Shown: positions 27,825-42,675, counted from the stretch's first letter. The stretch is 64,000 bases of DNA from Bdellovibrionota bacterium (GCA_041751875.1 JBGSIC010000032.1:41118-105117), one strand, 5' to 3'. Made by a program: numbers and translations. Notes: generated by a model from the letters alone, not told the origin.

Positions 27825-29657
27825 TTATTTTGCTCCAGCACCCACCAAGATGAGTTTCATTTGTTCGACCATGTCGAGTGTCGCCTGAGCCTCAGTCCTC
27901 TCTTCAGGTGTCTTGGCAGAACCGAAAGCCATCTTTGCGCTGGAGATGCGACCTTCCACCATTTTGAGGGGTGATTGGTTGAAAAGAGGAAGGTTTACGT
28001 CTGCCTTTGCCTCGACCAGTAGTTTCAGTATCTCGATGACATTGGGAGGGGGAGCAAAAATGGGCCGCACCACTAAGTGAAGGGGCGAAAAGCCCCCTAC
28101 ATTGACTGCATTTACGTTTGCGCCCGCATCGACCAGAAGCTTGGTGACCTTTGCAAAACCTCTTATGACGGAAGAATGCAAATAGGTGTCGTCGCCCCTT
28201 AACAAGCGGTTCGGGTTTGCCCCCAGTTCAAGCAGGCGTTTAACGACTTCAACTTGGTCGAGATCAACTGCAGAAACAAGGGGAGCCTCCTGTCCGACAA
28301 GGACGTCCACGTCGGCGCCTTTGGAATGAAGAAGATTGATGCTCTCCACACTTTTTGCGTGGAACATAGCGGTTCTGCCATCGTTTGCCCTGTGATTAAC
28401 CTCTACGCCTTGCTCGATGAGGTAACTCGCAATGGCGATGTTCTTGGAGCCGATGGCATCAAAAAGCAGAGTTCTGCCATCGTTGTCTTCATCCAAAACA
28501 TTCGCACCGCTTGCGACGAGAAACTTCACCAAATTTAAATCTTTCTTCCAGCATGCCTCGGATAAAGGAGTGCCGTCGTGACTATCTGTCGCATTTACAT
28601 CGGCGCCGGCACCGACGAGTAGCTTCGCGATTTCAAAGGTTTTGGCGCTGTGTAAAGGCGTTTGCTGGTTTTTATCTTTAGAAGTGACCTCTGCACCTTG
28701 CTCAATGAGATAGGAAACGATTGCGGTGTGACCTTGTTGAACGGCAAGATGAAGCGCGGTTTGCGCATCATTTTGCACTTCGTTTAATTCCGCGCCCTGG
28801 GAAACCAGTGCCGTTACTAAGCCTTCCATTCCCGCGCTTGCGGCAAGATGCAGAGCCGTTTCGCCAGCATTGTTTTTCTTTTTGATATCCGTTTTGGAAA
28901 CAAGGGTTTTGGCGAGGGTTTGATCTCCCCCTTTTATTGCGATGTGAAGTACTGAGTTGCCTGATTTATCGGCGATATTAAGAGAAGCGCCTTTGTCTAT
29001 CAAAACACTCGCAAATTCGGAGTTCTTATTAGTAAGCGCGACAAGCAGCGGTCTGTTGCTTTCGGGGCTCTCCATATCTGCGCCCTTTGCGATAAGTTCA
29101 TTAAAAAGGGTTTTGTTTCCCATCTCCATTGCTAGGAGAAGGGCGGTTTCATTGGACGCGTTTACATGATCCAGGTCGCAGCCGCTCACAGAAGCAAGTA
29201 AGCTCGCGGCCGGTAAATTCTTGTTAGCCAAGGCCACGAGTAAGGGAGTATTTCCTGAGCTACCGGAAGTTTGATTGATGTCTGCACCGGAAGCGATGAG
29301 AAGTTTGATAATGTGAAGTTGTTTCGTTTCGCCACCGAAGAATTTCACACTTTCTTCTAGAGCTAAGTGGAGCGGGTACTCTGACCGAGCGAAGCCCGTT
29401 GTTTTTTCTTTTGCGCTTGCACCCTGCTTTAGGGCTTTATCCACGCATGCGACGTTTGCCATTCCGATGGCTTGATCGAGTTCAGGGCTAGGTTCCATAC
29501 AACCGAAATCGGGAACCTGTCCCATTTCAGCCATTTCGCCTCCAAATCCGTGGGAGGGCATTCCCCCCAAGCCGTCTGGTGCGTCGGGAGAGCACCCCAC
29601 GAGAAACATCACAACCGTCAAACTGGCCTTCGTAAGAACACCGCAAACTTTTCGCAC
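27825..29657 (-). CDS. Ankyrin repeat lipoprotein
   Basis: LVGC lipobox and many G.T(A/P)LH.A / GADVN repeats. Confidence 0.9.
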   Translation of the reverse strand: MRKVCGVLTKASLTVVMFLVGCSPDAPDGLGGMPSHGFGGEMAEMGQVPDFGCMEPSPELDQAIGMANVACVDKALKQGASAKEKTTGFARSEYPLHLALEESVKFFGGETKQLHIIKLLIASGADINQTSGSSGNTPLLVALANKNLPAASLLASVSGCDLDHVNASNETALLLAMEMGNKTLFNELIAKGADMESPESNRPLLVALTNKNSEFASVLIDKGASLNIADKSGNSVLHIAIKGGDQTLAKTLVSKTDIKKKNNAGETALHLAASAGMEGLVTALVSQGAELNEVQNDAQTALHLAVQQGHTAIVSYLIEQGAEVTSKDKNQQTPLHSAKTFEIAKLLVGAGADVNATDSHDGTPLSEACWKKDLNLVKFLVASGANVLDEDNDGRTLLFDAIGSKNIAIASYLIEQGVEVNHRANDGRTAMFHAKSVESINLLHSKGADVDVLVGQEAPLVSAVDLDQVEVVKRLLELGANPNRLLRGDDTYLHSSVIRGFAKVTKLLVDAGANVNAVNVGGFSPLHLVVRPIFAPPPNVIEILKLLVEAKADVNLPLFNQSPLKMVEGRISSAKMAFGSAKTPEERTEAQATLDMVEQMKLILVGAGAK

Positions 29658-29873: not shown

Positions 29874-31202
29874 TTGAATTTATTTATTAAGTTTATATTT
29901 TGTGGCTTTCTTTTTTGCGTGCCCGCCTTTGGCCACGTCTGCAGGCTGCTCCTATTGGGGGCCTATTCCGCGGGGGCGGATTTGGGGCTGCGGACGACCG
30001 AGCAGGGGCTTGAGGCGGTACACGTTCATCCCCGCCCTGAGAAGATTTTGGAACCGTTCTATATGAGGTCGTGGAGGGGGGATACCTATTCCGCGCATTA
30101 TGAATTTTCTGGCAGGCAAGAGGACGCAGAAAATTTGATTCGAACCATTGCGCCCGATCATGTGTTGTTAGGATCGGGAGCGGGCGTCCAAGAATACCAG
30201 TACCTGGCGCAAGCCGCCCTTAATTTGGGTATTCCTCTTTTGGCGAACAATCCCGTCGTGAATCCTGCCCTGATAGACAAGGCGGAATTTTATCGTAGCG
30301 TAAAAGATCTTCCCGGAATTTTTATCCCCCCGTTTATTGCTTCAGAAGATCCTGCTGTGCTCGCCCAATGGGCGGAAACTCAAAGTGGCCCCTTGGTGCT
30401 AAAGCCCAGCGCCGGCGGAGGGACAGTCGGCGGACGGGTCGTGGATCCTTCCGAAGTGTTCGAAAGAGCGGGTGAACTTCTCGAGCGAAGTCACGGCATG
30501 ATCAAGTCGCATCGTATGATTCTGATGCCCTATTTGGGGGGAGAAGAATATGCGGTGAATATTATTTTCAGAAGGGGAGATCCTCTTGTGACAGGGGTTT
30601 GGTCTTATAAGAGAAAACGCCTCCCGGGCGCTCTTATCCGCTACGAAGCCGATTGGTTGATGGATCCCCATTCTCCTATTGCAACTCAACTCATTTCGGC
30701 TGCGACTGCCATCGCGCGGCACCAAGGCTTGAAGGTCGGTGCGCTTCACATTGAGTTTAAGATTTTACCGGATGGAAAAATTGTGCCCCTCGATCCCAAC
30801 CCGCGTTTACCAGGTGGCGGGCATGTGCCCATGGAAACTTTGGCGACGGGCCGCGATCCCAGAACACTCTACGTGGCGTCTTACACGGATCCTAATAAGC
30901 TCGATAAAGAACCCTTCTTATACACGCGCGAAAAATTTGCTGTGGGTGTCTTTCTCAGTACCGAGGGAAACAAACGCTACACGAGTGCCCCGCTGGCAGG
31001 AATAGAAAAGCGTGCGAAAGAACTCGGTGTGGAATTGGATTATAAGGCGGAGTACGAAGAAGACGCTGTAATGGTAAGGACCGTCGATGCGGATACCGTT
31101 GTGGGTTGGTTTCGGGTAGTGGGACCCTCAGAAGACAGTACTCGCGAGATCATGCGCCTGATTGAGCTCTCCAGAGACGCGGGTGAATTCGAGAAGGATT
31201 AG
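29874..31202 (+). CDS. ATP-grasp domain protein (L-amino acid ligase-like)
   Basis: DK, PLVLKPSAGGG, YLGGEEYAVN, GALHIEF and NPRLPGG. Confidence 0.8.
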   Translation: MNLFIKFIFCGFLFCVPAFGHVCRLLLLGAYSAGADLGLRTTEQGLEAVHVHPRPEKILEPFYMRSWRGDTYSAHYEFSGRQEDAENLIRTIAPDHVLLGSGAGVQEYQYLAQAALNLGIPLLANNPVVNPALIDKAEFYRSVKDLPGIFIPPFIASEDPAVLAQWAETQSGPLVLKPSAGGGTVGGRVVDPSEVFERAGELLERSHGMIKSHRMILMPYLGGEEYAVNIIFRRGDPLVTGVWSYKRKRLPGALIRYEADWLMDPHSPIATQLISAATAIARHQGLKVGALHIEFKILPDGKIVPLDPNPRLPGGGHVPMETLATGRDPRTLYVASYTDPNKLDKEPFLYTREKFAVGVFLSTEGNKRYTSAPLAGIEKRAKELGVELDYKAEYEEDAVMVRTVDADTVVGWFRVVGPSEDSTREIMRLIELSRDAGEFEKD

Positions 31203-31236
31203 CAGCGTTGTACGCGCGGAAGGATTTGCATACAAA
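31201..31236 (+). pseudogene. Orphan 3' tip homologous to the lipoprotein gene at 36266-36643
   Basis: 31 of 36 nt identical to 36587-36622 (SSVVRAEGFAYK vs SSVLYADGFAYK). Confidence 0.6.
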
Positions 31237-32423: not shown

Positions 32424-32465
32424 TGGGCCCGCCGTGACTTGAACACGGAACCCCCAGATTAGAAA
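32424..32465 (-). repeat. Copy 1 of tRNA-Arg 3' half (att-like direct repeat)
   Basis: 42 of 42 identical to 36735-36776. Confidence 0.95.
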
Positions 32466-32827
32466 ACGACGTGGGCGCTACGCTGCCCGCGTCGGAGTTG
32501 ACGTAATCAAACAATATTAACCAGTTGGAGTGAGGCTTCTTTCGTCTGGGTGTCTGAATTGGGACTAAAACCGACCAGGGAATCGACCAAGAAGGGAAGT
32601 GGTGTTTCAGGACTCCAAGTCCACGGGTGACCTTCCGTGCTCCCATAGTTCAAGAAACATTTCCTCGAATCCATGGAACAACGAAGGGGTAGAGTCCTCA
32701 AAAACGGCTAGAGGGCCTTCGCTGCATCGCCGGTATATTCAAAGCATGTTGTCGTTTGCTCCGGTCTCAAGACTGATACATTTCTCAAATTCAAAACAGC
32801 AAAGAGCGTGACGGGTGCCTAAAGATC

Positions 32828-32843
32828 TGGCACTCCTTTTGCT
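32828..32843 (+). promoter_or_regulatory. Sigma-54 (-24/-12) promoter
   Basis: TGGCACTCCTTTTGCT, followed by SD aaggag before GTG 32886. Confidence 0.7.
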
Positions 32844-32885
32844 TTTTGATCCTATGTGGCCCCTAACGGGTCGAAGGAGTAGGCA

Positions 32886-34907
32886 GTGAAGAAAATATTG
32901 TTGCTTGGTGTGGTATCTCTTTTGGTCCTAAATGGTTGTGGTCAAACCCCCAACGAGGGAATCGGAAGTGGGGAAGAGATTGTCAAAGACAAAGGCTCTG
33001 ACTTTGAGCACATCGCTCTTCCGCCAGAAAAGCCCTACAAGTCTCTGGACTCTCTATTCAAGAACCCAGCCGAAGAAATTCTTCGTGCCTCAGATCGTGC
33101 TGCGGTTCGCTATAAGCTCCGGACACACGCTTCACCTTCAAAGCTTTACCACTATGAACTGAAAAAACTAATGGAGAACCTCTCTTCCGTGACCCTGGAA
33201 GATATCCTAAATATTACGGATGGATTTTACGTTTCTGGAGTAAGACACCGCGAATTGCGGGCTGAGCTCTCTAAACTATCTAATGAGAATCCGGAGCAAA
33301 TGAGACGGAAACTGACCATTGAACGAGACTTTGCCTCGGCGAGAGACCTAGCTCACCTCTGCAATGAGACGATCTTGCTTGGCCTCGAGAAACGGGCAGG
33401 GAAGGTATCGGATGACAGTTGGGCCCGTCTGGCAAGTGTCATTGTTCCCGGCGAGGGGAGCGAGGAAATTCTGCGCCAAATGATCGATGTTCCCAATATT
33501 GAAAGCGAAGAGTCTCTGAAAGTGGCGCTTGATCTGGCCATCGAAAAGAAAGCGGAGAAGCTTGCCGCAGAGCTTGCGGTGAGTCACTTCCAGAATCACA
33601 CTTCTCAAGGCAGAGAAGATGCTCGCGCTCTGTTGCGCCGCTTGAAGGGAGTCAGCCTCATGAAGGTGGCCGACAAAATAAACTTCCGTATTGAAGAGGA
33701 GCCCGTGAACTTCCAGAAAGAGCTTGTGGCAGCCGCGGAAGAGGATGACTATCAGGTAGTTGCCGAGCTCGGAGGACAGGCCCCCTTCCGGACCCTCGTG
33801 GAGAGAGCGGAGTGGGTGCAACCCCAGCGGCGTCAGGCCTACCTCATCCATATTGCCCTTCACTATGCCACTTTTGAAGATGCTGATCTGGGTGCGTTTA
33901 TGGATGATTTAAGTGAGCTCAATCGGGAACGATTTTTCACGAGCCCGTTTCATGTGAGCCTCTTTATAAAGCGTCTTTCCATTTCGTTGGATGACCTTAA
34001 GGAGAGGCTGGGGGCGCTTTCAGTCGACGCCCGATTCTTGTTGATGAAGGAGTTTGATGCGGAACGCACCGCCAGAGATATTGCCTATCCCGCATACACC
34101 GATTACTTTTTTGCTCAATTGCCGCTCGATAATAAACTCGCTGAGTTCGCGGCGCTGGCATTTAAGAATCAAAGATTCCCTATTTCAAATGAAAAACTAT
34201 TCGACCTAATTGCGACGAGTTCTTTGTCTGAAGAAGATAAAGCGGCGTATCTCAACGCGGATGAGAGATCAGAGATCTCGGTAAATGCAATCAGGAAAGT
34301 TTTGGCCAGTCTAACGCCTTCGAGCTATGAAAGGCTGCTCCAGGTTGTAACGACGAAGAATCTGGGCCCCATAACGGGTGACGAAGTGGAGGAGATTGCC
34401 AACATTGTGAAAGAAACCAGACCTACCTTGGCTAAAACTTGGTATCTCGTGGCTGTGCCTAAAGCTAGAAAAGGGACACTAGAGATGTCCACGATTACCG
34501 CTTTCATTGGCAATCACTGGGAGAAGCGGAGAGAACGCGCCGACTCCATTTATTTTCTCAATCTCTATGGCAACGTACCCAAGGTGGAGTTCTTCTTGGC
34601 GGCAGCGAATGCGATCGGATGGGACCGCACCGATAGCGGCGTAGAGTATTTGTACACCAATGCATCTCAATTAGATGAAGACTCCATTAGTTTGGATGAG
34701 CTCAGAAAATACATCGGAACTTTCATGCGGCATGCTCTTTACGGTGAGCACAGGCGTGCGAATGAGGTGGCCGCGACGTGCTACGAGGCACTCCATACCA
34801 GCGCTCAGACCCAGGAGAGTATCGATGCGATTGCGGAGATGCTGAAAACATCTGTGGGCGAAAATGCCCGCTTCCTGGAATTGGTCGCCAAGATAGAGCC
34901 TCGTTGA
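32886..34907 (+). CDS. Large hypothetical lipoprotein (helical-looking)
   Basis: MKKILLLGVVSLLVLNGC lipobox; 673-aa ORF. Confidence 0.75.
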   Translation: MKKILLLGVVSLLVLNGCGQTPNEGIGSGEEIVKDKGSDFEHIALPPEKPYKSLDSLFKNPAEEILRASDRAAVRYKLRTHASPSKLYHYELKKLMENLSSVTLEDILNITDGFYVSGVRHRELRAELSKLSNENPEQMRRKLTIERDFASARDLAHLCNETILLGLEKRAGKVSDDSWARLASVIVPGEGSEEILRQMIDVPNIESEESLKVALDLAIEKKAEKLAAELAVSHFQNHTSQGREDARALLRRLKGVSLMKVADKINFRIEEEPVNFQKELVAAAEEDDYQVVAELGGQAPFRTLVERAEWVQPQRRQAYLIHIALHYATFEDADLGAFMDDLSELNRERFFTSPFHVSLFIKRLSISLDDLKERLGALSVDARFLLMKEFDAERTARDIAYPAYTDYFFAQLPLDNKLAEFAALAFKNQRFPISNEKLFDLIATSSLSEEDKAAYLNADERSEISVNAIRKVLASLTPSSYERLLQVVTTKNLGPITGDEVEEIANIVKETRPTLAKTWYLVAVPKARKGTLEMSTITAFIGNHWEKRRERADSIYFLNLYGNVPKVEFFLAAANAIGWDRTDSGVEYLYTNASQLDEDSISLDELRKYIGTFMRHALYGEHRRANEVAATCYEALHTSAQTQESIDAIAEMLKTSVGENARFLELVAKIEPR

Positions 34908-34944
34908 ACTGCTTCCTTCTGTGTGTATCGAGAAGCCGTCGCAA

Positions 34945-34980
34945 CCCCGCTGAAATGCTCGGTAACTAACCGAATATCGA
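34945..34980. repeat. 36-bp non-tRNA direct repeat (second copy at 35915-35950)
   Basis: CCCCGCTGAAATGCTCGGTAACTAACCGAATATCGA is identical in both copies and contains the inverted repeat TCGGT-AACTA-ACCGA. Confidence 0.9.
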
Positions 34981-34994
34981 AGCGAAGCGGAGAT

Positions 34995-35036
34995 TGGGCC
35001 CGCCGTGACTTGAACACGGAGCCCCCAGGTTAGAAA
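34995..35036 (-). repeat. Copy 2 of tRNA-Arg 3' half
   Basis: 40 of 42 identical to 36735-36776. Confidence 0.95.
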
Positions 35037-35965
35037 CGACTCGGAGGTCGCCCTCCTAGGCGCGGTTCAGGTCTACATAGACCATCTAGTGGTTTTAGGC
35101 TTTTCAATTTGCGGCGACGTATTCGGCATCAATGACTAGACTCACCTTACGATTCTCCATATTTCCGGAAACATAAAGACCGTAAGTAGTCTCGGTTTTT
35201 CGGTAGAAGATAGCTTCGAGCCCGGCTTCCCTAGTTTCTTGGAGGGTTTTTCTCAGGCTTCCAGCGCGGTTGTTAGTGTCCCAGGAGAATTTATTTCTGT
35301 CGCGTGTTTGTTCGCCATTTAACTCAAACGTAGCCTCTAGCCCTCTCGATGATTTCCCTTCCTTTCCCTCCAACTGTAAAGCGATTTCCATTTTCCCAGA
35401 TATATATCCTTTCGGAAGTTGGTTCATATCGGTACAAAGGAAACGCTGTCTTACTTCGGGGTTCGCGAGATCAGAGGTTGATGAGATGACTGATTCCACT
35501 TGCGCGACACCAGTTAGGGTTTTTCCATCTTTATCAAGAGAAACTCTTTGTTCCCAGCGAACGCTTCTCAAGCGCAGCTTAGCGGTATCGGGTAAGTCGC
35601 TTACAAAAATTTCCGTTGAACGAAAGTCCTGCGGAGTAGTGGTTAAAGGCGAGCATTTGCTGTTCGCTCGATTTCCAGCGCCATCACCTTGTATTTCGGT
35701 GTTTTTGTCTCCGCAGCCTGAAAAGGCGAAAAGGGCCATCGCTAGAACGACTTTCTTAGTAGGCATAGTGAGTCTCCTGTGCAGTTCAGATAGGCCTTTT
35801 CTTTGAACTATGCAAGCCATAGTGCAAAGCTGTGGCAACACGCCAGGTCGCGAGTTCAATCAACTTGAGAGTCGGACATGAAATCGACCACGCGGCTAAA
35901 AAGAAGGAGGGAAGCCCCGCTGAAATGCTCGGTAACTAACCGAATATCGAGGAAAAAGCTGAGAT
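35037..35965. mobile_element. Cassette B: integrase-less mini-island
   Basis: Bounded by 42-bp repeats; carries one lipoprotein gene on the minus strand. Confidence 0.6.
35104..35766 (-). CDS. Hypothetical lipoprotein
   Basis: SD aggag and MPTKKVVLAMALFAFSGC lipobox. Confidence 0.75.
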   Translation of the reverse strand: MPTKKVVLAMALFAFSGCGDKNTEIQGDGAGNRANSKCSPLTTTPQDFRSTEIFVSDLPDTAKLRLRSVRWEQRVSLDKDGKTLTGVAQVESVISSTSDLANPEVRQRFLCTDMNQLPKGYISGKMEIALQLEGKEGKSSRGLEATFELNGEQTRDRNKFSWDTNNRAGSLRKTLQETREAGLEAIFYRKTETTYGLYVSGNMENRKVSLVIDAEYVAAN

Positions 35966-36007
35966 TGGGCCCGCCGTGACTTGAACACGGAACCCCCAGA
36001 TTAGAAA
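35966..36007 (-). repeat. Copy 3 of tRNA-Arg 3' half
   Basis: 42 of 42 identical to 36735-36776. Confidence 0.95.
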
Positions 36008-36734
36008 ACGACTCGGGCGCTTCGCCGCCCTCGTCGTAGATCAGGTAAGGCGCAGCGCCTTTTCACTAACACGTCGAAATGCAAAAGGCCTGACAGGCGG
36101 CAATTTGGCCGGCGATTGCACGCAGGAGCGCTTTCGTCTCCCGTAAACGTCTTTCGATTCCGGCGCTAAAAAGCACAGAGTTGGAGCGAGATTCGGTGAT
36201 GTCCACAAAAGTCCCACATTTAGTATTTTTCCACTATATTGATAGGCGAGAAAGGAGGGAAGGCTATGTATCGTTTTCTCATCGCTCAATTTCACCTGGT
36301 GGCCATTGTGGTGCTCTTTGGGTGTGCTCATTCCCCCGGTGGTTTTTTAGTGCAGCGAACCCAAAATTCTTACAGCATCTTCGTGGGGGGGGCCGTTAAG
36401 GATAAAGAAAATTCATTTTTTGCTGGCGCATATAACATCTGTCTCGACAAGCATCAGAGCGGATTTAAAGTTCAGAGTCGGACTTCTGATCAGTATGGTT
36501 CCATTGACGCAACAGTAGTGTGCGAAGGGAATCCGGATAAATTTCTGGCGAGCAAATACGCAAATCGAAAAATAAAGCTCGAGAGAAGCAGCGTTTTATA
36601 CGCGGATGGCTTTGCATACAAAGTCATCGACACAAGGAATTGAAGAGATTCGTGATGCCGTGATTTATTGCAGTTCGGGGAGAAATTGGAGAGCGACTAT
36701 TTACTATCGGGCTGAAGCAAGGGTTTGATGAAAA
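36008..36734. mobile_element. Cassette A: integrase-less mini-island adjacent to the tRNA
   Basis: Lies between repeat copy 3 and the tRNA 3' end; carries one lipoprotein gene. Confidence 0.6.
36266..36643 (+). CDS. Small hypothetical lipoprotein
   Basis: SD aggagg and MYRFLIAQFHLVAIVVLFGC lipobox. Confidence 0.7.
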   Translation: MYRFLIAQFHLVAIVVLFGCAHSPGGFLVQRTQNSYSIFVGGAVKDKENSFFAGAYNICLDKHQSGFKVQSRTSDQYGSIDATVVCEGNPDKFLASKYANRKIKLERSSVLYADGFAYKVIDTRN

Positions 36735-36808
36735 TGGGCCCGCCGTGACTTGAACACGGAACCCCCAGATTAGAAATCTGGTGCTCTATCCGGTTGAGCT
36801 ACGGGCCC
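36735..36808 (-). tRNA. tRNA-Arg (anticodon UCU), CCA not encoded
   Basis: GGGCCCG TA GCTC AACCGGATA GAGC A CCAGA TTTCTAA TCTGG GGGTT CCGTG TTCAAGT CACGG CGGGCCC A folds as a full cloverleaf. Confidence 0.97.
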
Positions 36809-36871
36809 TCAGGAAGACTGTAATCCTAGATAGTTAGCACAATCGTATTTGGATTGTCGATGGGCATCCTA

Positions 36872-38125
36872 CTAGGCAGGAAGCCTAAAGGAAAACTTAG
36901 AACCTTGGCCTGGAACAGACTCGGCCCATATCGTGCCGTTATGTTGCTCAAGGACCCGTTTGCAAATGGCTAAGCCCATGCCCGTGCCGGGGTACTTTTC
37001 TTCGCCGGTGTGAAGGCGCTTAAACACCATGAAAATCTGATCGTGGTACTCGGCTTCAAACCCAATGCCGTTGTCGGACACCGTAAATACCCAGCTGCCG
37101 TCCTCTTTGGTTGCCGATATTTGTATTTGTAAGGGCACCCCTTCCTGACGGAACTTGATGGCGTTGGCGATGAGGTTTTGGAAAAGCTGTGTGATCTGAG
37201 CAGGGACGACGGCTACTTTAGCCTCATTCTTCTTAAACGTAGGGGTAATCTCCGCTCCGCTTTCCGCAATGGAAAGAGAGAGGTTTTCCAGGGCGCGGTC
37301 CAAACACGTTCTGATGCAGCTTTCTTCCACAACCCCTCGGTTATCCAAACGCGCATAGTTACCTAAGCTTTCAATCAAGCGGGTCATCCGGTTGGTGCCG
37401 GTGAGGATGTGACCGATGTAACCTCGTTCTTCGTCGTCCAGCCTCTCCTTTAATTTGTCCTGCAACAAATCGCTGAATAGCGAGATGGTACGGAGAGGCT
37501 CACGTAAATCGTGAGAAGCAATGTGAGTGAAAGTCTCTAGATCTTGTCGCCTGGCAATTTCCTCCTCGGTGCGTGCTTTTTGAGCGATGAGCGAGAGGTT
37601 TGCTTTCTCGAGTTCTTGGTTTTTTTTCTCAAGTTCCTTGGGGCTTCTTAGACTAAGCGCCTGTGGAATCAGCGGAAAAAGCATAATCGCCGTTAAAACA
37701 GAAATGGAAGCCGTAATAAACTTCACCACTCCGTCTGCCCGGTAGACGGGTATCCAAAGAGTTACGATGTTCATGATGTGGGTGGTTCCACACCAGAAAA
37801 TAAATCCCGCAAAAAGAGCGAATATCCAAGGGTAAGGAAGATCCTTTTTGTTTTTTCGGAAGTACAGAAGCATGAGCGGAATGGAAAAGTAAGCCAGCGC
37901 AATCAGGGCGTCGGAGATAACGTGCAGCCAAACGATTTCCCCACGCCAAAAAAAGCAGTGTCCGTGCGGCATGAAGTCCGCCTTAAACAGCCTTGAAAAA
38001 AAGCCCCCTACAGACTCCTGTTTGTTTAGGTCAAACGCCTGACCGTGGTCATGATCATGACCCTGGGCCTGAAGAAGGGCAGGAAGGCCCAAGAAAAGGG
38101 CTGTTAACGTCCGACGCATAAACAA
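36872..38125 (-). CDS. Sensor histidine kinase with ethylene-receptor-like transmembrane domain
   Basis: SDALIALAYFSIP...FIFWCGTTH; H-box ASHDLREPL; N, G1 and G2 boxes (NLIANAIKF, DNGIG, GTGMGLAIC). Confidence 0.9.
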   Translation of the reverse strand: MFMRRTLTALFLGLPALLQAQGHDHDHGQAFDLNKQESVGGFFSRLFKADFMPHGHCFFWRGEIVWLHVISDALIALAYFSIPLMLLYFRKNKKDLPYPWIFALFAGFIFWCGTTHIMNIVTLWIPVYRADGVVKFITASISVLTAIMLFPLIPQALSLRSPKELEKKNQELEKANLSLIAQKARTEEEIARRQDLETFTHIASHDLREPLRTISLFSDLLQDKLKERLDDEERGYIGHILTGTNRMTRLIESLGNYARLDNRGVVEESCIRTCLDRALENLSLSIAESGAEITPTFKKNEAKVAVVPAQITQLFQNLIANAIKFRQEGVPLQIQISATKEDGSWVFTVSDNGIGFEAEYHDQIFMVFKRLHTGEEKYPGTGMGLAICKRVLEQHNGTIWAESVPGQGSKFSFRLPA

Positions 38126-38207
38126 AGGCGTAGTTTAAGTTTTGCCTTATAGCAAGACCGGCGTCTTAGGGTGAGCCGTCCAGAGAGCTACCAGGGAGGC
38201 TGATACG

Positions 38208-38669
38208 CTAGAGAAGCTCTATAACCCGGCCCCCGCCGCGGTTGGGGCAGGTACGGAAATAGGGCAACAGGCTGTTATTATTGATATCAATCAAGGAGTT
38301 CCAGTCCTTTACAACCTGGGGATTGGATTGAAGATTTAACTCGATTAGATACGAACGGATGTTTACGAGGTCATGGTAAAGGTGGTCGTAGCCGTGGCAC
38401 AAGCTCGGGAAAGAAGCCGATAAAATATCGCTCGCAAAATCTAGGACCAGTTCTTCGATGTGGTGAATGTCTTCGATGGCTTTCTTGAACTCCGGCGTGC
38501 CGTGGGAGTCGTACACCTCATGTAAGGTGGCATCCAAAATTTCAATTCTGTCGGCAAGATCATGGGCCGCCTGAGATGCCTGAACGCGCCAGGGTTCGGG
38601 AGCAGTTTGGCCGGTGCTCGCAATAACCAAACCTAAGGAAACCACGCACCGACTAAGTAAGCTTTTCAT
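38208..38669 (-). CDS. Secreted hypothetical protein
   Basis: SD ggag, N-terminal signal-like segment, helical-looking sequence. Confidence 0.55.
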   Translation of the reverse strand: MKSLLSRCVVSLGLVIASTGQTAPEPWRVQASQAAHDLADRIEILDATLHEVYDSHGTPEFKKAIEDIHHIEELVLDFASDILSASFPSLCHGYDHLYHDLVNIRSYLIELNLQSNPQVVKDWNSLIDINNNSLLPYFRTCPNRGGGRVIELL

Positions 38670-38920
38670 TTTCTCTCCCGCCGTTTGCCCCGAAAACTCT
38701 CAATCAGTTTTACGTCGTTTTTGGATTTGAGAGAAGGCGTCAAGTAGGCAAGGTGGAGAGTAGAGCGTAATACAAGGTCAGCGGAGCAGCGTTCCATCTC
38801 CTTCTAAAACATACCTAATTCACGCTGGTTAGATGATGCCGGATGGCGTTATCGCCTGTTTAAAAATAATGCCGATAGGCCACTGTTTGAGACACTTCTT
38901 GCCGCAGGAGGGTGAGAACA

Positions 38921-39559
38921 ATGACCCGTCGAGAGTTACTCAGTTTCCTAGGAAAGCTTTCAGTTTTATCCCTTGTGTCAGTCCGTTCGCTTTGGGGAAA
39001 GTCTTCTTCAGCGCGATTTGTTTTAATTTACGATTCCCGTTCTTCTCGCAGCGCCTTTTGTGAAAGGCTGGTTGCGGCGGCAGGCAGCTTCCTAATAAGG
39101 CGTGACCCAAACTGGTTAGAGAATTTAAGGCGTTTGGATATTCGCCAGGACTTTTCTCACGTCAGGTCTCTACTCAAAACCTATGGACCCGAAACAACGA
39201 ATTTAAACTTGCCTCTTCTTTTAGCACTTCCCCAAGATACCGAAAGTGACGTGGAATACTGGAACTTGGGCTGGCTAAAAGCGAGAGATGCCTCGCAAGG
39301 CTGTTATCCCATTTCCCCGAACTGGTGGTCGGTGGACGGCGACTTTGACCCAACGCTTGAGAAGGTTCTTACCCATCTCTACAAATCTCCCAACCATACC
39401 GGAGGCTACTTCCGGTTGGATTGGTTGGAGCAATTAAAATTCGAGGAATTGCAGTCCTTGCATTCGGATCATCACCGGGAAATGATCGAAAAAGGCAAAG
39501 TGCCTTGGAAATTAGTGAACCAACTTTGTCCCCTGGAATCCCTAGAAGAGATTCCCTAG
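38921..39559 (+). CDS. Hypothetical protein with Tat-like N-terminus
   Basis: MTRRELL start; His-rich C-terminal LHSDHH. Confidence 0.5.
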   Translation: MTRRELLSFLGKLSVLSLVSVRSLWGKSSSARFVLIYDSRSSRSAFCERLVAAAGSFLIRRDPNWLENLRRLDIRQDFSHVRSLLKTYGPETTNLNLPLLLALPQDTESDVEYWNLGWLKARDASQGCYPISPNWWSVDGDFDPTLEKVLTHLYKSPNHTGGYFRLDWLEQLKFEELQSLHSDHHREMIEKGKVPWKLVNQLCPLESLEEIP

Positions 39560-42500
39560 CATTTCTCTAAGTATATTTTGACCGCTAGGTCGTCGATATC
39601 CTGATTAGCCGTCCAGGTAAGATTTTCTGTCGAAGGGCCAAATTCCGTGGCCAAAGTTTCAGACTGAATATAATCGCGGTGTTTTTCTAGAGCCGACTTT
39701 AAGGTATCTGGGCATTGGTACTTCACCTTAATCCGATCGGTGACTTCTAGGCCTGCATCCTTGCGAAGTTTTTGCAGGCGATTGACCATCTCGCGCGCTT
39801 GTCCCTCGCGAATAAGGGACTCATCTAAATCAGTGTCTAGCACCAAAGTAATTCCCGAGCCTGATTGCGAGGCGCCAGAGGTTTTGGGCGTTCGGACTAC
39901 GTTTACTTCCTCAAAAAAGATCTGTTCTCCCATCAAGGAGATGGACTTTTTGGCTTCGAGTTCTTGAATCTGTTCGCTGGAAAGTTCGGCCACCGCTTGC
40001 AGCACGGCTTTCATCTTTTGACCAAGCCGTGGGCCAAGGACTTTCGCATTGGCTTTAGCGGCAAAGGTCACATACTTGCTTTCATCCGTATCGTAGGCAA
40101 CTTCCTTGATATTAAGCTCATTGGCGATGAGATCCTTGAAATTACGGATGGTCTTTTCCAAATGCGGATTTTTGGTCACCACCGTAAGCTTTTTGAGCGG
40201 CTGACGTGTTTTGATTTTTTGCGCTGTGCGAAGGCTGCGCCCCATAAAGACGACCGTACTTACCAGAGTCATCTGCGCTTCGAGTTCCGTATCGCGCCAA
40301 GCAGTTTTAAGCTCCGGAAACTTACATAAATGAATACTTTCCGGTTCGGAAGCGAGTTTCAAATTTTGGTGAATCTCTTCCGTAATAAAAGGCAAGATGG
40401 GGGCCAGCACCTTGGTGAAAGTGGTCAATATATAATAGAGGGTGGAATAGGCGGCGTCCTTGTCCTTGCCCTTATCTTCCTTCCAAAAGCGTCGGCGATT
40501 AAGGCGTATATACCAGTTGGTCAGCTCATCAATAAAGCCCAAGACGATGGGAATGACCTCATACAAATGATAGATAGCCATTTTGGCCTCTACCTCTTGA
40601 ATGAGTGTTTGAAGTCTTGAGAGAACCCATCTATCGAGTTCATTTTCTAAGTTGTCTAAATGTTTCGGGTTAAACTGTTCAGGCTTCCAGCCGTCTGCAA
40701 GCGCATAGGTCACAAAAAAACTATAGGCGTTCCAAAGAGGTAGAAGCACCGCTCGGACGGTTTCTTGAAGGCCTTTTTCGGAGAAACGTAATTCTTCAGC
40801 GCGCGAGGCGGGAGACGTGGTGAGGTAAGCTCTCAGCGCGTCTGCACCGTACTTGTCTAAAATTTCAGTCGGCTCAGGATAATTCTTATGGCGCTTACTC
40901 ATTTTCTTGCCATCTTCGGCAAGCACCATGCCGTTGACGATCACATTTTTAAAAGGAGCTTTCCCAAAGAGAATGTTTCCCAGCACGGAAAGCGTATAAA
41001 ACCAGCCACGAGTTTGGTCTAAACCTTCGGCGATAAAGTCGGCCGGGAAGGCCTTCTCAAAACTTTCTTTATTCTCAAAAGGGTAGTGGGCTTGCCCGTA
41101 AGGCATAGAGCCGCTTTCAAACCAGCAGTCCAAGACTTCCGGAATGCGTTTCATGAGCTTTCCCGTTTTGGGTGAAGGGAAAGTGATATCGTCGACAAAG
41201 TGCTTATGGAGGTCTTTTACTTTTTTGCCGGAAAGCTTCTCTAGTTCTGCAATCGAACCCACGCAGAGCATTTCGTTTGTTTCTTCGCAGCGCCAAATCG
41301 GAAGCGGGGTGCCCCAGAATCGGTTGCGGCTAATATTCCAATCGCGAGCGTCTTTAAGCCAGTTGCCAAATCGCCCGTCACGAATGGTTTCCGGTACCCA
41401 GTGAGTTTTTTCGTTACTCTTAACCAGTTGTTCTTTGACAGGATCTAATTTTACGAACCACGTGCTAATCGCGCGGTAAATAAGCGGGGTATCACTGCGC
41501 CAGCAGAACGGATAGTTGTGAACAATCGTACCGTGATGAAAGAGAGATCCCTGGGTTTTAAGATCCTTGATGATTTGCTTGTCGGCTTCTTTTACGTTTT
41601 GTCCCTGGTAGTCGGGCACTTCTTTCGTGAAATTGCCCGAGGCATCGACTGGGTTAACGGGTTCAATTTTGTACTTTTGGCAGACCACCATGTCGTCTTC
41701 CCCAAAAGCGGGCGCCATGTGCACAAGCCCCGTACCATCTTCGGTAGTGACGTGGTGGCCGATTAAAATGTTGAACGCACCCTTGTGATCTTTAAAGTAA
41801 GGGAACAGCGGCTCGTAGGTTTCCCCTTCAAGTGTGCTTCCCTTAAACTGAGAAAGGACTTTGTAGGTGCTCGCATCCGGAAAATACTGCGCAACTCGGG
41901 CTTCGGCGATGACGTAGTGGCTGCCATCTTTAGCGTCTTCAATTTCGACGTAAGGAACTTCTCCGTTTACTGCAACCGCGAGGTTGGAGGGCAGGGTCCA
42001 GGGAGTCGTGGTCCATACCAAGAAGTACCGATTGTGCTTTGTGCTTTTAAGACGAACCGTTATGGCCGGATCCTGAACTGACTTATAGTTAAGATTGGCT
42101 TCGAAATTCGAAAGCGGTGTAGAAATGCGCCAGGAATAGGGCATCACCCGGTAGCCTTCGTAAATAAGCCCCTTGTCCCAAAGCTGCTTGAAAACCCACC
42201 ACACAGACTCCATGAACGAAGGGTCCATCGTGCGGTACCCGTTTTCAAAATCTACCCAGCGACCCGTACGGGAAATCGTTTTTTCCCACTCTTTGGTGTA
42301 GCGAAGAACAATCTCTCGGCAGGCCTCGTTGAACTTTGCGATGCCGAAATTTTCGATATCAGCAAGGCCCTTAAGGTCGAGCTCCTTTTCCATCTCAAAT
42401 TCAACGGGTAGCCCGTGGCAGTCCCAGCCCCAGCGGCGCTGGACATACTTGCCCTTCATGACCCAGTAGCGGGGAACGATATCCTTTAAAGTACCCGGTA

Positions 42501-42675
42501 AAATATGGCCGTAGTGGGGAAGGCCCGTCGCGAAAGGGGGCCCATCATAAAAGACAAAAGGGGCTTGGCCTTTATTGGCTTCAAGACCTTTTTTAATGAT
42601 TCCCTGTTTCTTCCAGAAAGCCAGCGTTTCGAGCTCTTGCTCGGGAAGAGAAACATTGGTTTTGACAGGCTTCAT
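39556..42675 (-). CDS. ileS: Isoleucyl-tRNA synthetase (type 2)
   Basis: DGPPFATGLPHYGH, GWDCHGLP, WTTTPWTLPSN, EGLDQTRGWFY and KMSK. Confidence 0.97.
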   Translation of the reverse strand: MKPVKTNVSLPEQELETLAFWKKQGIIKKGLEANKGQAPFVFYDGPPFATGLPHYGHILPGTLKDIVPRYWVMKGKYVQRRWGWDCHGLPVEFEMEKELDLKGLADIENFGIAKFNEACREIVLRYTKEWEKTISRTGRWVDFENGYRTMDPSFMESVWWVFKQLWDKGLIYEGYRVMPYSWRISTPLSNFEANLNYKSVQDPAITVRLKSTKHNRYFLVWTTTPWTLPSNLAVAVNGEVPYVEIEDAKDGSHYVIAEARVAQYFPDASTYKVLSQFKGSTLEGETYEPLFPYFKDHKGAFNILIGHHVTTEDGTGLVHMAPAFGEDDMVVCQKYKIEPVNPVDASGNFTKEVPDYQGQNVKEADKQIIKDLKTQGSLFHHGTIVHNYPFCWRSDTPLIYRAISTWFVKLDPVKEQLVKSNEKTHWVPETIRDGRFGNWLKDARDWNISRNRFWGTPLPIWRCEETNEMLCVGSIAELEKLSGKKVKDLHKHFVDDITFPSPKTGKLMKRIPEVLDCWFESGSMPYGQAHYPFENKESFEKAFPADFIAEGLDQTRGWFYTLSVLGNILFGKAPFKNVIVNGMVLAEDGKKMSKRHKNYPEPTEILDKYGADALRAYLTTSPASRAEELRFSEKGLQETVRAVLLPLWNAYSFFVTYALADGWKPEQFNPKHLDNLENELDRWVLSRLQTLIQEVEAKMAIYHLYEVIPIVLGFIDELTNWYIRLNRRRFWKEDKGKDKDAAYSTLYYILTTFTKVLAPILPFITEEIHQNLKLASEPESIHLCKFPELKTAWRDTELEAQMTLVSTVVFMGRSLRTAQKIKTRQPLKKLTVVTKNPHLEKTIRNFKDLIANELNIKEVAYDTDESKYVTFAAKANAKVLGPRLGQKMKAVLQAVAELSSEQIQELEAKKSISLMGEQIFFEEVNVVRTPKTSGASQSGSGITLVLDTDLDESLIREGQAREMVNRLQKLRKDAGLEVTDRIKVKYQCPDTLKSALEKHRDYIQSETLATEFGPSTENLTWTANQDIDDLAVKIYLEKC

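Follow-up and report, generated by a model that had tools for sequence, protein, structure and literature searches.

A hairpin kept at the junctions of a small cassette array on tRNA-Arg(TCT) in a Bdellovibrionota bacterium, and its possible role as a border terminator

We analyzed a stretch of 64,000 nucleotides from the genome of a Bdellovibrionota bacterium (GCA_041751875.1, JBGSIC010000032.1:41118-105117; this whole stretch is called the window, and positions are counted from its first letter). The genome assembly comprises 3.42 Mb in 34 contigs and is 96.9% complete. The only tRNA gene in the 64-kb window is a tRNA-Arg(TCT), and besides this gene no Rfam match was found there. Three copies of the 3' half of this tRNA lie beside it and mark off three small gene cassettes; at each copy, a short hairpin stands where the 5' half of the tRNA would be. 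This hairpin is the subject of the present report. The elements of the array are listed below; each hairpin was folded as minus-strand RNA and compared with 200 shuffles, and its bit score is that of R1, a covariance model built on the hairpin plus the junction.

36735-36808, minus strand: intact tRNA-Arg(TCT), the putative integration target (ARAGORN; 69.4 bits with the Rfam tRNA model)
36009-36036, minus strand: hairpin X3, 28 nt (-19.3 kcal/mol, z -2.35; R1 82.3 bits)
35966-36007, minus strand: tRNA 3'-half copy 3, from anticodon loop to discriminator base (0 mismatches to the tRNA)
35915-35965, minus strand: trailer-side arm Y2, from the repeat comparison within the window
35037-35062, minus strand: hairpin X2, 26 nt (-14.0 kcal/mol, z -0.97; R1 64.7 bits)
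34995-35036, minus strand: tRNA 3'-half copy 2 (2 substitutions, one of them at the first base 3' of the anticodon loop)
34945-34994, minus strand: trailer-side arm Y1, directly 3' of the tRNA half, with a 36-nt stretch 100% identical to Y2
32467-32494, minus strand: hairpin X1, 28 nt (-17.4 kcal/mol, z -2.7; R1 77.4 bits), followed on the minus strand by T and then TTTCTAA
32424-32465, minus strand: tRNA 3'-half copy 1 (0 mismatches to the tRNA)

The repeated part consists of the last 42 nt of the tRNA and begins with the 7-nt anticodon loop, which reads TTTCTAA on the minus strand. All four copies of this half, including that of the intact gene, are co-oriented on the minus strand, and a search of the entire assembly with up to 6 substitutions allowed revealed no fifth copy. 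In all three fragments, identity to the tRNA breaks off precisely where the anticodon loop begins on its 5' side. In the terms used by Islander, the locus combines one intact tRNA with three displaced, co-oriented fragments of the same tRNA, and in 3/3 fragments the block of identity starts at a canonical sublocation, the anticodon loop, the other such sublocations being the T loop and the T/acceptor junction. In copy 2, the substitution just 3' of the loop would fit strand exchange within it but may also be a later mutation. Sublocation classes for integration into tRNA genes were reportedly defined by Williams in 2002.

The four tRNA halves delimit three units, at 36008-36776 (769 bp), 35037-36007 (971 bp), and 32466-35036 (2571 bp), and each unit contains one convincing open reading frame (ORF):

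36266-36643, plus strand: cargo gene c3, encoding a predicted lipoprotein of 125 aa with an LFGC lipobox, no family match
35104-35766, minus strand: cargo gene c2, encoding a predicted lipoprotein of 220 aa with an FSGC lipobox, no family match
32886-34907, plus strand: cargo gene c1, encoding a predicted lipoprotein of 673 aa with an LNGC lipobox, no family match

The lipoboxes were recognized by eye, as were the signal peptides that end at the lipobox cysteine in all three products. None of the three proteins has a match in Pfam, NCBIfam, or PHROGs or a paralogue in the genome. Against PADLOC, c1 yields a weak partial match only (Csx1 model, E 8e-05), and 3/300 other genomes of the phylum contain matches to c1, all of them weak. 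The G+C content of the cassettes (0.46-0.53) does not distinguish them from the flanks.

A self-comparison of the window revealed a single shared module and no other repeat connecting the three cassettes. In this att-like module of ~130 nt, the hairpin forms the conserved far arm (X) and is followed by the tRNA-Arg 3' half and by the trailer arm Y. Over 132 nt, the module is 85.6% identical between 34945-35072 and 35915-36046, and junctions 1 and 3 share an 88-nt stretch with 88.6% identity. The Y arm, ~50 nt long, is common to units 1 and 2 and includes the 36 identical nucleotides; the X arm consists of the hairpin and about 12 nt more, with related sequence reaching out to ~32506 at X1 and ~36048 at X3. 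Past the junction, similarity between cassettes ends after ~40 nt on the X side and after 20-50 nt on the Y side. Att-like sites stand on both sides of a cassette: one border is made of a tRNA half and a Y arm, the opposite border of an X arm and a tRNA half.

Two further observations concern the cassettes and their ends. First, the 3' end of c3 resembles the spacer just past an ATP-grasp gene at 29874-31202: within the window, 31201-31236 and 36587-36622 match at 31/36 positions (E 4e-05) and in the same reading frame (SSV..GFAYK). The stretch at 31201-31236 may be a relic of an older c3-like cassette, in which case the array would once have been longer. Second, a small hairpin, AAGGCG CAG CGCCTT, followed by TTCAC on the plus strand, adjoins X3 at 36049-36066 and is not present at the other two junctions.

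Past the edge of the tRNA half, the sequence continues with ACGACGTGGGCGCTACGCTGCCCGCGTCG (32466-32494), CGACTCGGAGGTCGCCCTCCTAGGCG (35037-35062), and ACGACTCGGGCGCTTCGCCGCCCTCGTCGT (36008-36037). Aligned in the sense of the tRNA, X1 reads CGACGCGGGCAGCGTAGCGCCCACGTCG, X2 reads CGCCTAGGAGGGCGA--CCTCCGAGTCG, and X3 reads CGACGAGGGCGGCGAAGCGCCCGAGTCG, and the three are homologous over ~40 nt. On the minus strand, they run into the tail TTTTCTAATCT at copies 1 and 3 and TTTCTAACCT at copy 2. Stems of 10-11 bp are formed across the copies, and among the shuffles only 4/200 folded as well as X1 and 4/200 as well as X3, compared to 24/200 for X2. X1 and X3 differ at 5 positions, none of which falls in the 8 core pairs CGAC/GTCG and GGGC/GCCC. 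X2 differs from X3 at 6 positions and by a 2-nt deletion, and it keeps 8/10 stem positions paired. One position between the two helices, of 5 and 5 pairs, is mismatched in 3/3 copies (C.A, A.G, A.G).

The alignment of the three copies allowed us to follow the stem pair by pair. For the 10-pair stem, 27/30 cells are standard pairs. Five of the ten pairs are invariant, three are altered on both sides (G-C to U-A, G-C to A-U, and C-G to G-C), and two are broken, each in one copy. When the pairing register was slid, six controls showed 28-48% pairing and 0 pairs altered on both sides. The three ends are homologous and have retained their pairing. A different source for the X arms, decay of the tRNA 5' half, was considered and rejected, as local alignment to that half was no better than that of shuffles (fractions 0.31-0.71).

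Much of this had been noticed in a first-pass annotation of the same DNA. The three sequences that it reported do stand at the junctions, and its CGAC..GGGC/GCCC..GTCG stems with an irregular position are confirmed by core pairs identical in X1 and X3 and by the mismatch kept between the helices. Its view that unrelated cargo shares a structured end agrees with the lack of another linking repeat and of paralogues and with the 27/30 paired cells. By contrast, the middle copy, which it called shortened, is a full-length diverged homologue of X1 and X3: in the whole-hairpin alignment, X2 has lost 2 nt from its loop, forms a 10-pair stem, and takes part in the 3/10 pairs changed on both sides.

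The hairpin appears to be private to this locus. In its own genome, R1 scored the three junctions at 82, 77, and 65 bits; the next scores were 21 bits, for the intact tRNA, and 16 bits, for noise. A degenerate hairpin pattern occurred twice in the genome, and beyond the junctions a blastn-short search of the genome returned only noise of 11-18 nt. Among 100 relatives, the best R1 match (25 bits) was an ordinary terminator in one genome (G098), ACGACCCAGATTC..GAATCTGGGTCGTTTT, and a 101-nt junction query, compared with 60 relatives, was matched in its tRNA part only. The hairpin pattern was found 38 times in a metagenome collection, always in DNA of 61-76% G+C and in 0 cases adjoining a tRNA half; a junction 19-mer had 3 matches in a collection of species genomes, all unrelated. 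The T arm of this tRNA followed by a non-tRNA base gave 0 matches in the metagenomes and 0 in viral contigs, the Y arm gave 0 matches in viral contigs, and phage and plasmid collections gave no match (blastn, distant mode). The collections searched may omit records of this genome or near-identical ones.

The array is best read, from its sequence, as a tandem accretion of elements without an integrase of their own. Each cassette would have arrived in circular form and been recombined into the anticodon loop by a tyrosine integrase, and each entry would have left X joined to a displaced tRNA half. The integrase would act in trans and would no longer be, or never have been, encoded in the array. 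On this model, the copy at 32424-32465 would be the displaced original host copy, the cassette closest to the tRNA would be the newest and would have supplied the 3' half of the intact gene, and each hairpin would belong to the cassette on its higher-coordinate side.

We found no PF00589 match in the window region and no recombinase in or near the array. The genome has three PF00589 matches, located on contigs C15, C29, and C31; they comprise one XerC-like, one XerD-like, and one 408-aa Xer-like protein. The gene for the last one (C31) has no tRNA within the 15-kb stretch around it, and its product is 25% identical over 156 aa to the integrase encoded beside tRNA-Arg(TCT) in a relative (G035). 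Elsewhere, the genome encodes one large serine recombinase and two Y1 transposase-like proteins. All of these, the Xer-like genes included, were considered as the helper recombinase and set aside, as they lack any link to the array. The 100 relatives and the genome, metagenome, viral, phage, and plasmid collections yielded no parent element.

The same tRNA is used in other members of the order. Five relatives carry 8 further tRNA-Arg(TCT) 3'-half fragments; a tyrosine integrase gene adjoins the tRNA in one case (G035:C297) and a fragment in another (G016:C1). Because 7/8 of these fragments break at the same anticodon-loop edge and because integrase genes adjoin the tRNA or a fragment, tRNA-Arg(TCT) is a recurrent site of anticodon-loop integration in this order. 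In relative G033, a 3.2-kb stretch from fragment to tRNA (C423) contains a helix-turn-helix gene and an ORF of 558 aa and lacks an integrase gene. Two contigs of this relative (C423:1-4235 and C28) start with the same ~140 nt, made up of a Y arm and a fragment, and then diverge; this shared start points to a probable array there as well.

Comparison with two genomes of the same family did not reveal an empty site, as synteny was too weak, with only IleRS in common. In one genome (G001, C5:181000-200900, compared with 36735-42675 of the window), tRNA-Arg(TCT) and IleRS converge, whereas here both point the same way and three other genes separate them. The locus has therefore been rearranged between genera. 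The stretch is also present in contigs of four DNA runs of one study, three labeled as hot springs metagenome and one as biofilm metagenome; no RNA run was among those found to contain it. One run contig spans junction 1 without differences, and the contigs otherwise break at the repeats; among the contigs of the four runs, we observed no cassette-skipping joint, variant, or excision form.

What might the hairpin do? We put a probability of roughly 45% on its being an intrinsic terminator: on the tRNA-sense strand, the hairpin together with the T-run of the anticodon loop, UUUUCUAAUCU, would insulate the cassette border. The GC-rich stem and the T-rich loop directly after it on the minus strand would act together as a factor-independent terminator. 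Transcripts exiting a cassette would be stopped before they reach the orphan tRNA half and whatever lies beyond it, be it another cassette or a host gene, and read-through from the tRNA promoter would be stopped at the same border. A terminator was among the options offered by the first-pass annotation, and the order of elements, a GC-rich stem and then a T-run on the tRNA-sense strand, fits it.

The genome uses intrinsic terminators. Hairpins followed by TTTT, with a dG of -17 or lower, were found no more than 80 nt past a same-strand ORF (of at least 150 aa) in 67/286 cases, compared to 8/286 on the opposite strand, which served as a control. The T-tail scores of X1 (3.63), X3 (3.03), and X2 (2.88) are inside the interquartile range (2.64-4.79) of these 67 gene-end sites, and X2 lies 41 nt past the stop of a co-oriented gene, c2. 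A simple promoter/terminator scan was uninformative, with 8 terminator-like sites versus 8.7 expected.

Several findings weigh against a terminator. The U-tract is short and interrupted, and the stems have 2-4 unpaired positions, among them the mismatch at the same place in 3/3 copies, whereas 63% of the 67 gene-end terminators have uninterrupted stems (mean, 0.96 interruptions). Taken alone, X2 is not more stable than its shuffles (z -0.97). X1 folds better on the plus strand, where no T-run follows (-21.5 versus -17.4 kcal/mol), its two A.C mismatches being G.U pairs on that strand. Upstream of X1 and X3 there is no gene in the same orientation: the closest stop of a same-strand ORF of at least 150 aa lies at a distance of 881 nt from X1 and 863 nt from X3, and the hairpins might be reached by tRNA-promoter read-through or antisense transcripts only. 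Small minus-strand ORFs beside X1 and X3 (32507-32701 and 36041-36331) were discarded as genes; their translations look spurious and are mutually unrelated.

Conservation and covariation among cassette ends had been put forward at first pass as a check, and the outcome is positive with respect to the 3/10 pairs changed on both sides, compared to 0 in the slid controls; on the other hand, 35/500 column shuffles reached the observed covariation, a control that is only modest because there are just three sequences. Hairpin conservation rests on these three sequences at one locus because no homologous cassette end was found outside it.

The strongest competitor of the terminator is a recombination-site arm, a reading that we regard as possible and less probable; the two are not mutually exclusive. 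The hairpin would then form the part of attP closest to the core and serve as a binding site for an accessory protein or for the integrase by which the cassettes are moved, either as a double-stranded inverted repeat or as an extruded or single-stranded stem, and it would be kept because cassettes without it are immobile. The left core-type site of a tyrosine integrase is expected, from site geometry, where the 3' strand of the stem abuts the anticodon loop, and this strand (GAGTCG(T) or ACGTCGT) does abut the 7-nt loop. The sharp edges of the module are those of a minimal att module swapped between different cargo, and a mismatch kept in 3/3 stems is commoner in protein-recognized hairpins than in the terminators of this genome. 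But no cognate integrase was found in the 96.9%-complete genome, and the elements at the same tRNA site in relatives have a stable junction hairpin in 0/8 cases (dG, -2.6 to -11.6 kcal/mol). The arm next to the loop is also unlike the left half-site of the tRNA itself, and pair changes on both sides are less expected in a site recognized as duplex DNA.

It is unlikely, though still worth weighing, that the hairpin has no function of its own and that all three X arms were copied recently from the end of a single ancestral element. Simple descent, gene conversion inside the array, or template-switch mutation, a process that produces paired changes in palindromes, would have preserved the structure. 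The restriction of the motif to this locus (0/38 metagenome pattern matches next to a tRNA half and no viral, phage, or plasmid match) would be expected under this reading, and the 36 nt of Y that are 100% identical in two cassettes suggest recent copying or conversion. It is harder to reconcile with X2, which has diverged yet has 8/10 stem positions paired and three pairs that differ on both sides, and with the differences between X1 and X3, which lie only outside the 8 core pairs.

We consider a folded single-strand substrate of an integron-type recombinase, similar to attC, to be very improbable. As described, attC sites are imperfect palindromes 57-142 nt in length that contain conserved heptanucleotide R'' and R' boxes, with an unpaired spacer at the center and extrahelical bases (PMC2727003). 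Their recombination point falls within the R' box. They were once proposed to be terminators; according to a review, they lack a T-rich tail and do not terminate (PMC2727003, PMC8876359). The array resembles an integron in that each of its cassettes holds one gene and ends in an imperfect hairpin, whose two helices are separated by an irregular position. However, the hairpins here are 26-28 nt long, with 10-11 pairs and the ends ACGAC...GTCGT, and have no R''/R' boxes; the stem leads into a T-run; the edge of the repeat falls 0-1 nt beyond the stem, with the 42-nt tRNA half duplicated at every joint; and no protein of the genome scores above 133 bits as an integron integrase (TIGR02249), compared to a cutoff of 265. 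The attC-like option of the first-pass annotation thus fails on size, boxes, crossover position, and recombinase. Its other option, a dispersed palindrome of the repetitive extragenic palindrome (REP) type that lies beside tRNA fragments by chance, is almost certainly wrong: in spite of two Y1 (HUH) transposase-like genes in the genome, pattern scan, blastn-short, and R1 found just three copies, all at junctions, which rules out a REP/REPIN with many dispersed copies in this genome at the sensitivity used, and the worry that the motif might be a common REP unlinked to tRNA fragments did not materialize.

Stacks of integrase-less cassettes at tRNA genes are known already, as tandem accretion, cis-mobilizable elements (CIMEs), and island remnants. 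CIMEs are described as elements that are flanked by att sites, are devoid of integrase or transfer genes, and descend from an integrative and conjugative or integrative and mobilizable element, by which they can be mobilized in cis (PMC5704250). The cassettes are similar to the CIMEs described there in being att-flanked, in lacking integrase and transfer genes, and in their tandem position at the 3' part of a tRNA gene; they differ in being far smaller (0.77-2.6 kb), with one gene each and only the ~130-nt att module in common, and in that no parental integrative and conjugative or integrative and mobilizable element, and no helper, was found for them. In the Islander survey, as reported, 2083/3919 islands are anticodon centered, which makes this the commonest sublocation, and the tandems number 125 with at least two islands and 4 with at least three (PMC4383910). 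Our locus shares with the islands described there an intact tDNA, co-oriented displaced 3' fragments, an identity block starting from the anticodon loop, and a tandem arrangement; each Islander island is described as having an integrase gene, compared to 0/3 cassettes here, and a conserved junction hairpin is not described in the portions of that paper used for comparison (PMC4383910). Tycheposons and the islands of Prochlorococcus, as portrayed in the part of the source compared, also involve repeated integration at one tRNA, with older elements pushed outward and partial tRNAs at the joints, and degraded remnants without integrase accumulate in those islands (10.1101/2020.12.28.424599). Tycheposons, however, are defined by elements that carry an integrase, and the words "hairpin" and "terminator" are absent from the part of the text compared (10.1101/2020.12.28.424599).

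Compared to intrinsic terminators, the junction hairpins have the same layout, a GC-rich stem-loop and then a T-run, and their stability and tail score are within the range of the gene-end terminators of this genome. The differences are that the stem is interrupted, that the T-run comes from the tRNA anticodon loop, which belongs to the att core, and that 2/3 copies lack a co-oriented gene upstream. What is particular here is the very small size of the single-gene units, the shared module of ~130 nt, and a hairpin kept through paired changes; moreover, the hairpin lies directly against the anticodon loop, and its T-run is thereby supplied by the att core. A thin literature check on tRNA islands and attP terminators revealed, in the portions of the sources covered, no description of a junction hairpin with such a T-run.

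The genome contains other, shorter duplications of tRNA ends. Besides tRNA-Arg(TCT), 10/45 tRNA genes predicted by ARAGORN have an exact 18-22-nt copy of their own end nearby, all outside the window (C4:170460, C5:29783, C13:414795, C23:16591, C24:33595, C26:2593, C29:50300, C29:179370, C29:507077, and C33:34334). In 5 of the 10, a copy of the first 19-20 nt stands 86-97 nt upstream; the remaining 5 have a copy of the last 18-22 nt at 39-121 nt downstream. The spacers of the 5' type start with a related motif, CC..G.GAGC.GAGC, three spacers of the 3' type end in GCTCGCGAGG or GCTCGCAAGG, and the trailers past the duplicated end resemble those past the tRNA. These duplications look like att units without cargo, or scars of such units. 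The five spacers that we folded have no significant structure (z, -1.36 to +0.89), and the junction hairpin is therefore not general in this genome.

The genes around the array were also inspected. Beside the tRNA, at 36872-38125 on the minus strand, is a histidine kinase gene whose product has an N-terminal domain matching the ethylene-receptor family ETR1_N (PF25487, E 2.4e-39) followed by HisKA and HATPase_c. On the other side of the array, the product of 27825-29657 (minus strand) is a 610-aa protein that consists almost wholly of ankyrin repeats (Ank_2, E 1e-85); its neighbor, the ATP-grasp gene, has a paralogue on contig C21 with 48% identity.

A bolder view of the locus, improbable as a whole, is that the array is a working, integron-like platform for gene capture on a tRNA gene. 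The ~130-nt module would be a mobile recombination site at which an integrase acting in trans inserts, stacks, and shuffles single promoter-bearing genes, and the hairpin would be both a recognition element and an insulator that uses the anticodon loop as its U-tract. If so, the 10 short tRNA-end duplications would be empty, cargo-less units of related systems.

Each of the two better-placed readings of the hairpin has its own consequence. If the hairpin is a terminator, it shows how tiny integrative cassettes separate their own transcription from the orphan tRNA half and from neighboring genes, and a border terminator is a feature that we did not find in the portions of the tRNA-island literature compared here. 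If it is a recognition element, the ~130-nt module would be a minimal att site for a putative integrase, which would support gene capture at tRNA genes with an integrase acting from elsewhere. Under either reading, the cargo would be accessory surface material, gained one gene at a time by a bacterium from hot-spring metagenome samples.

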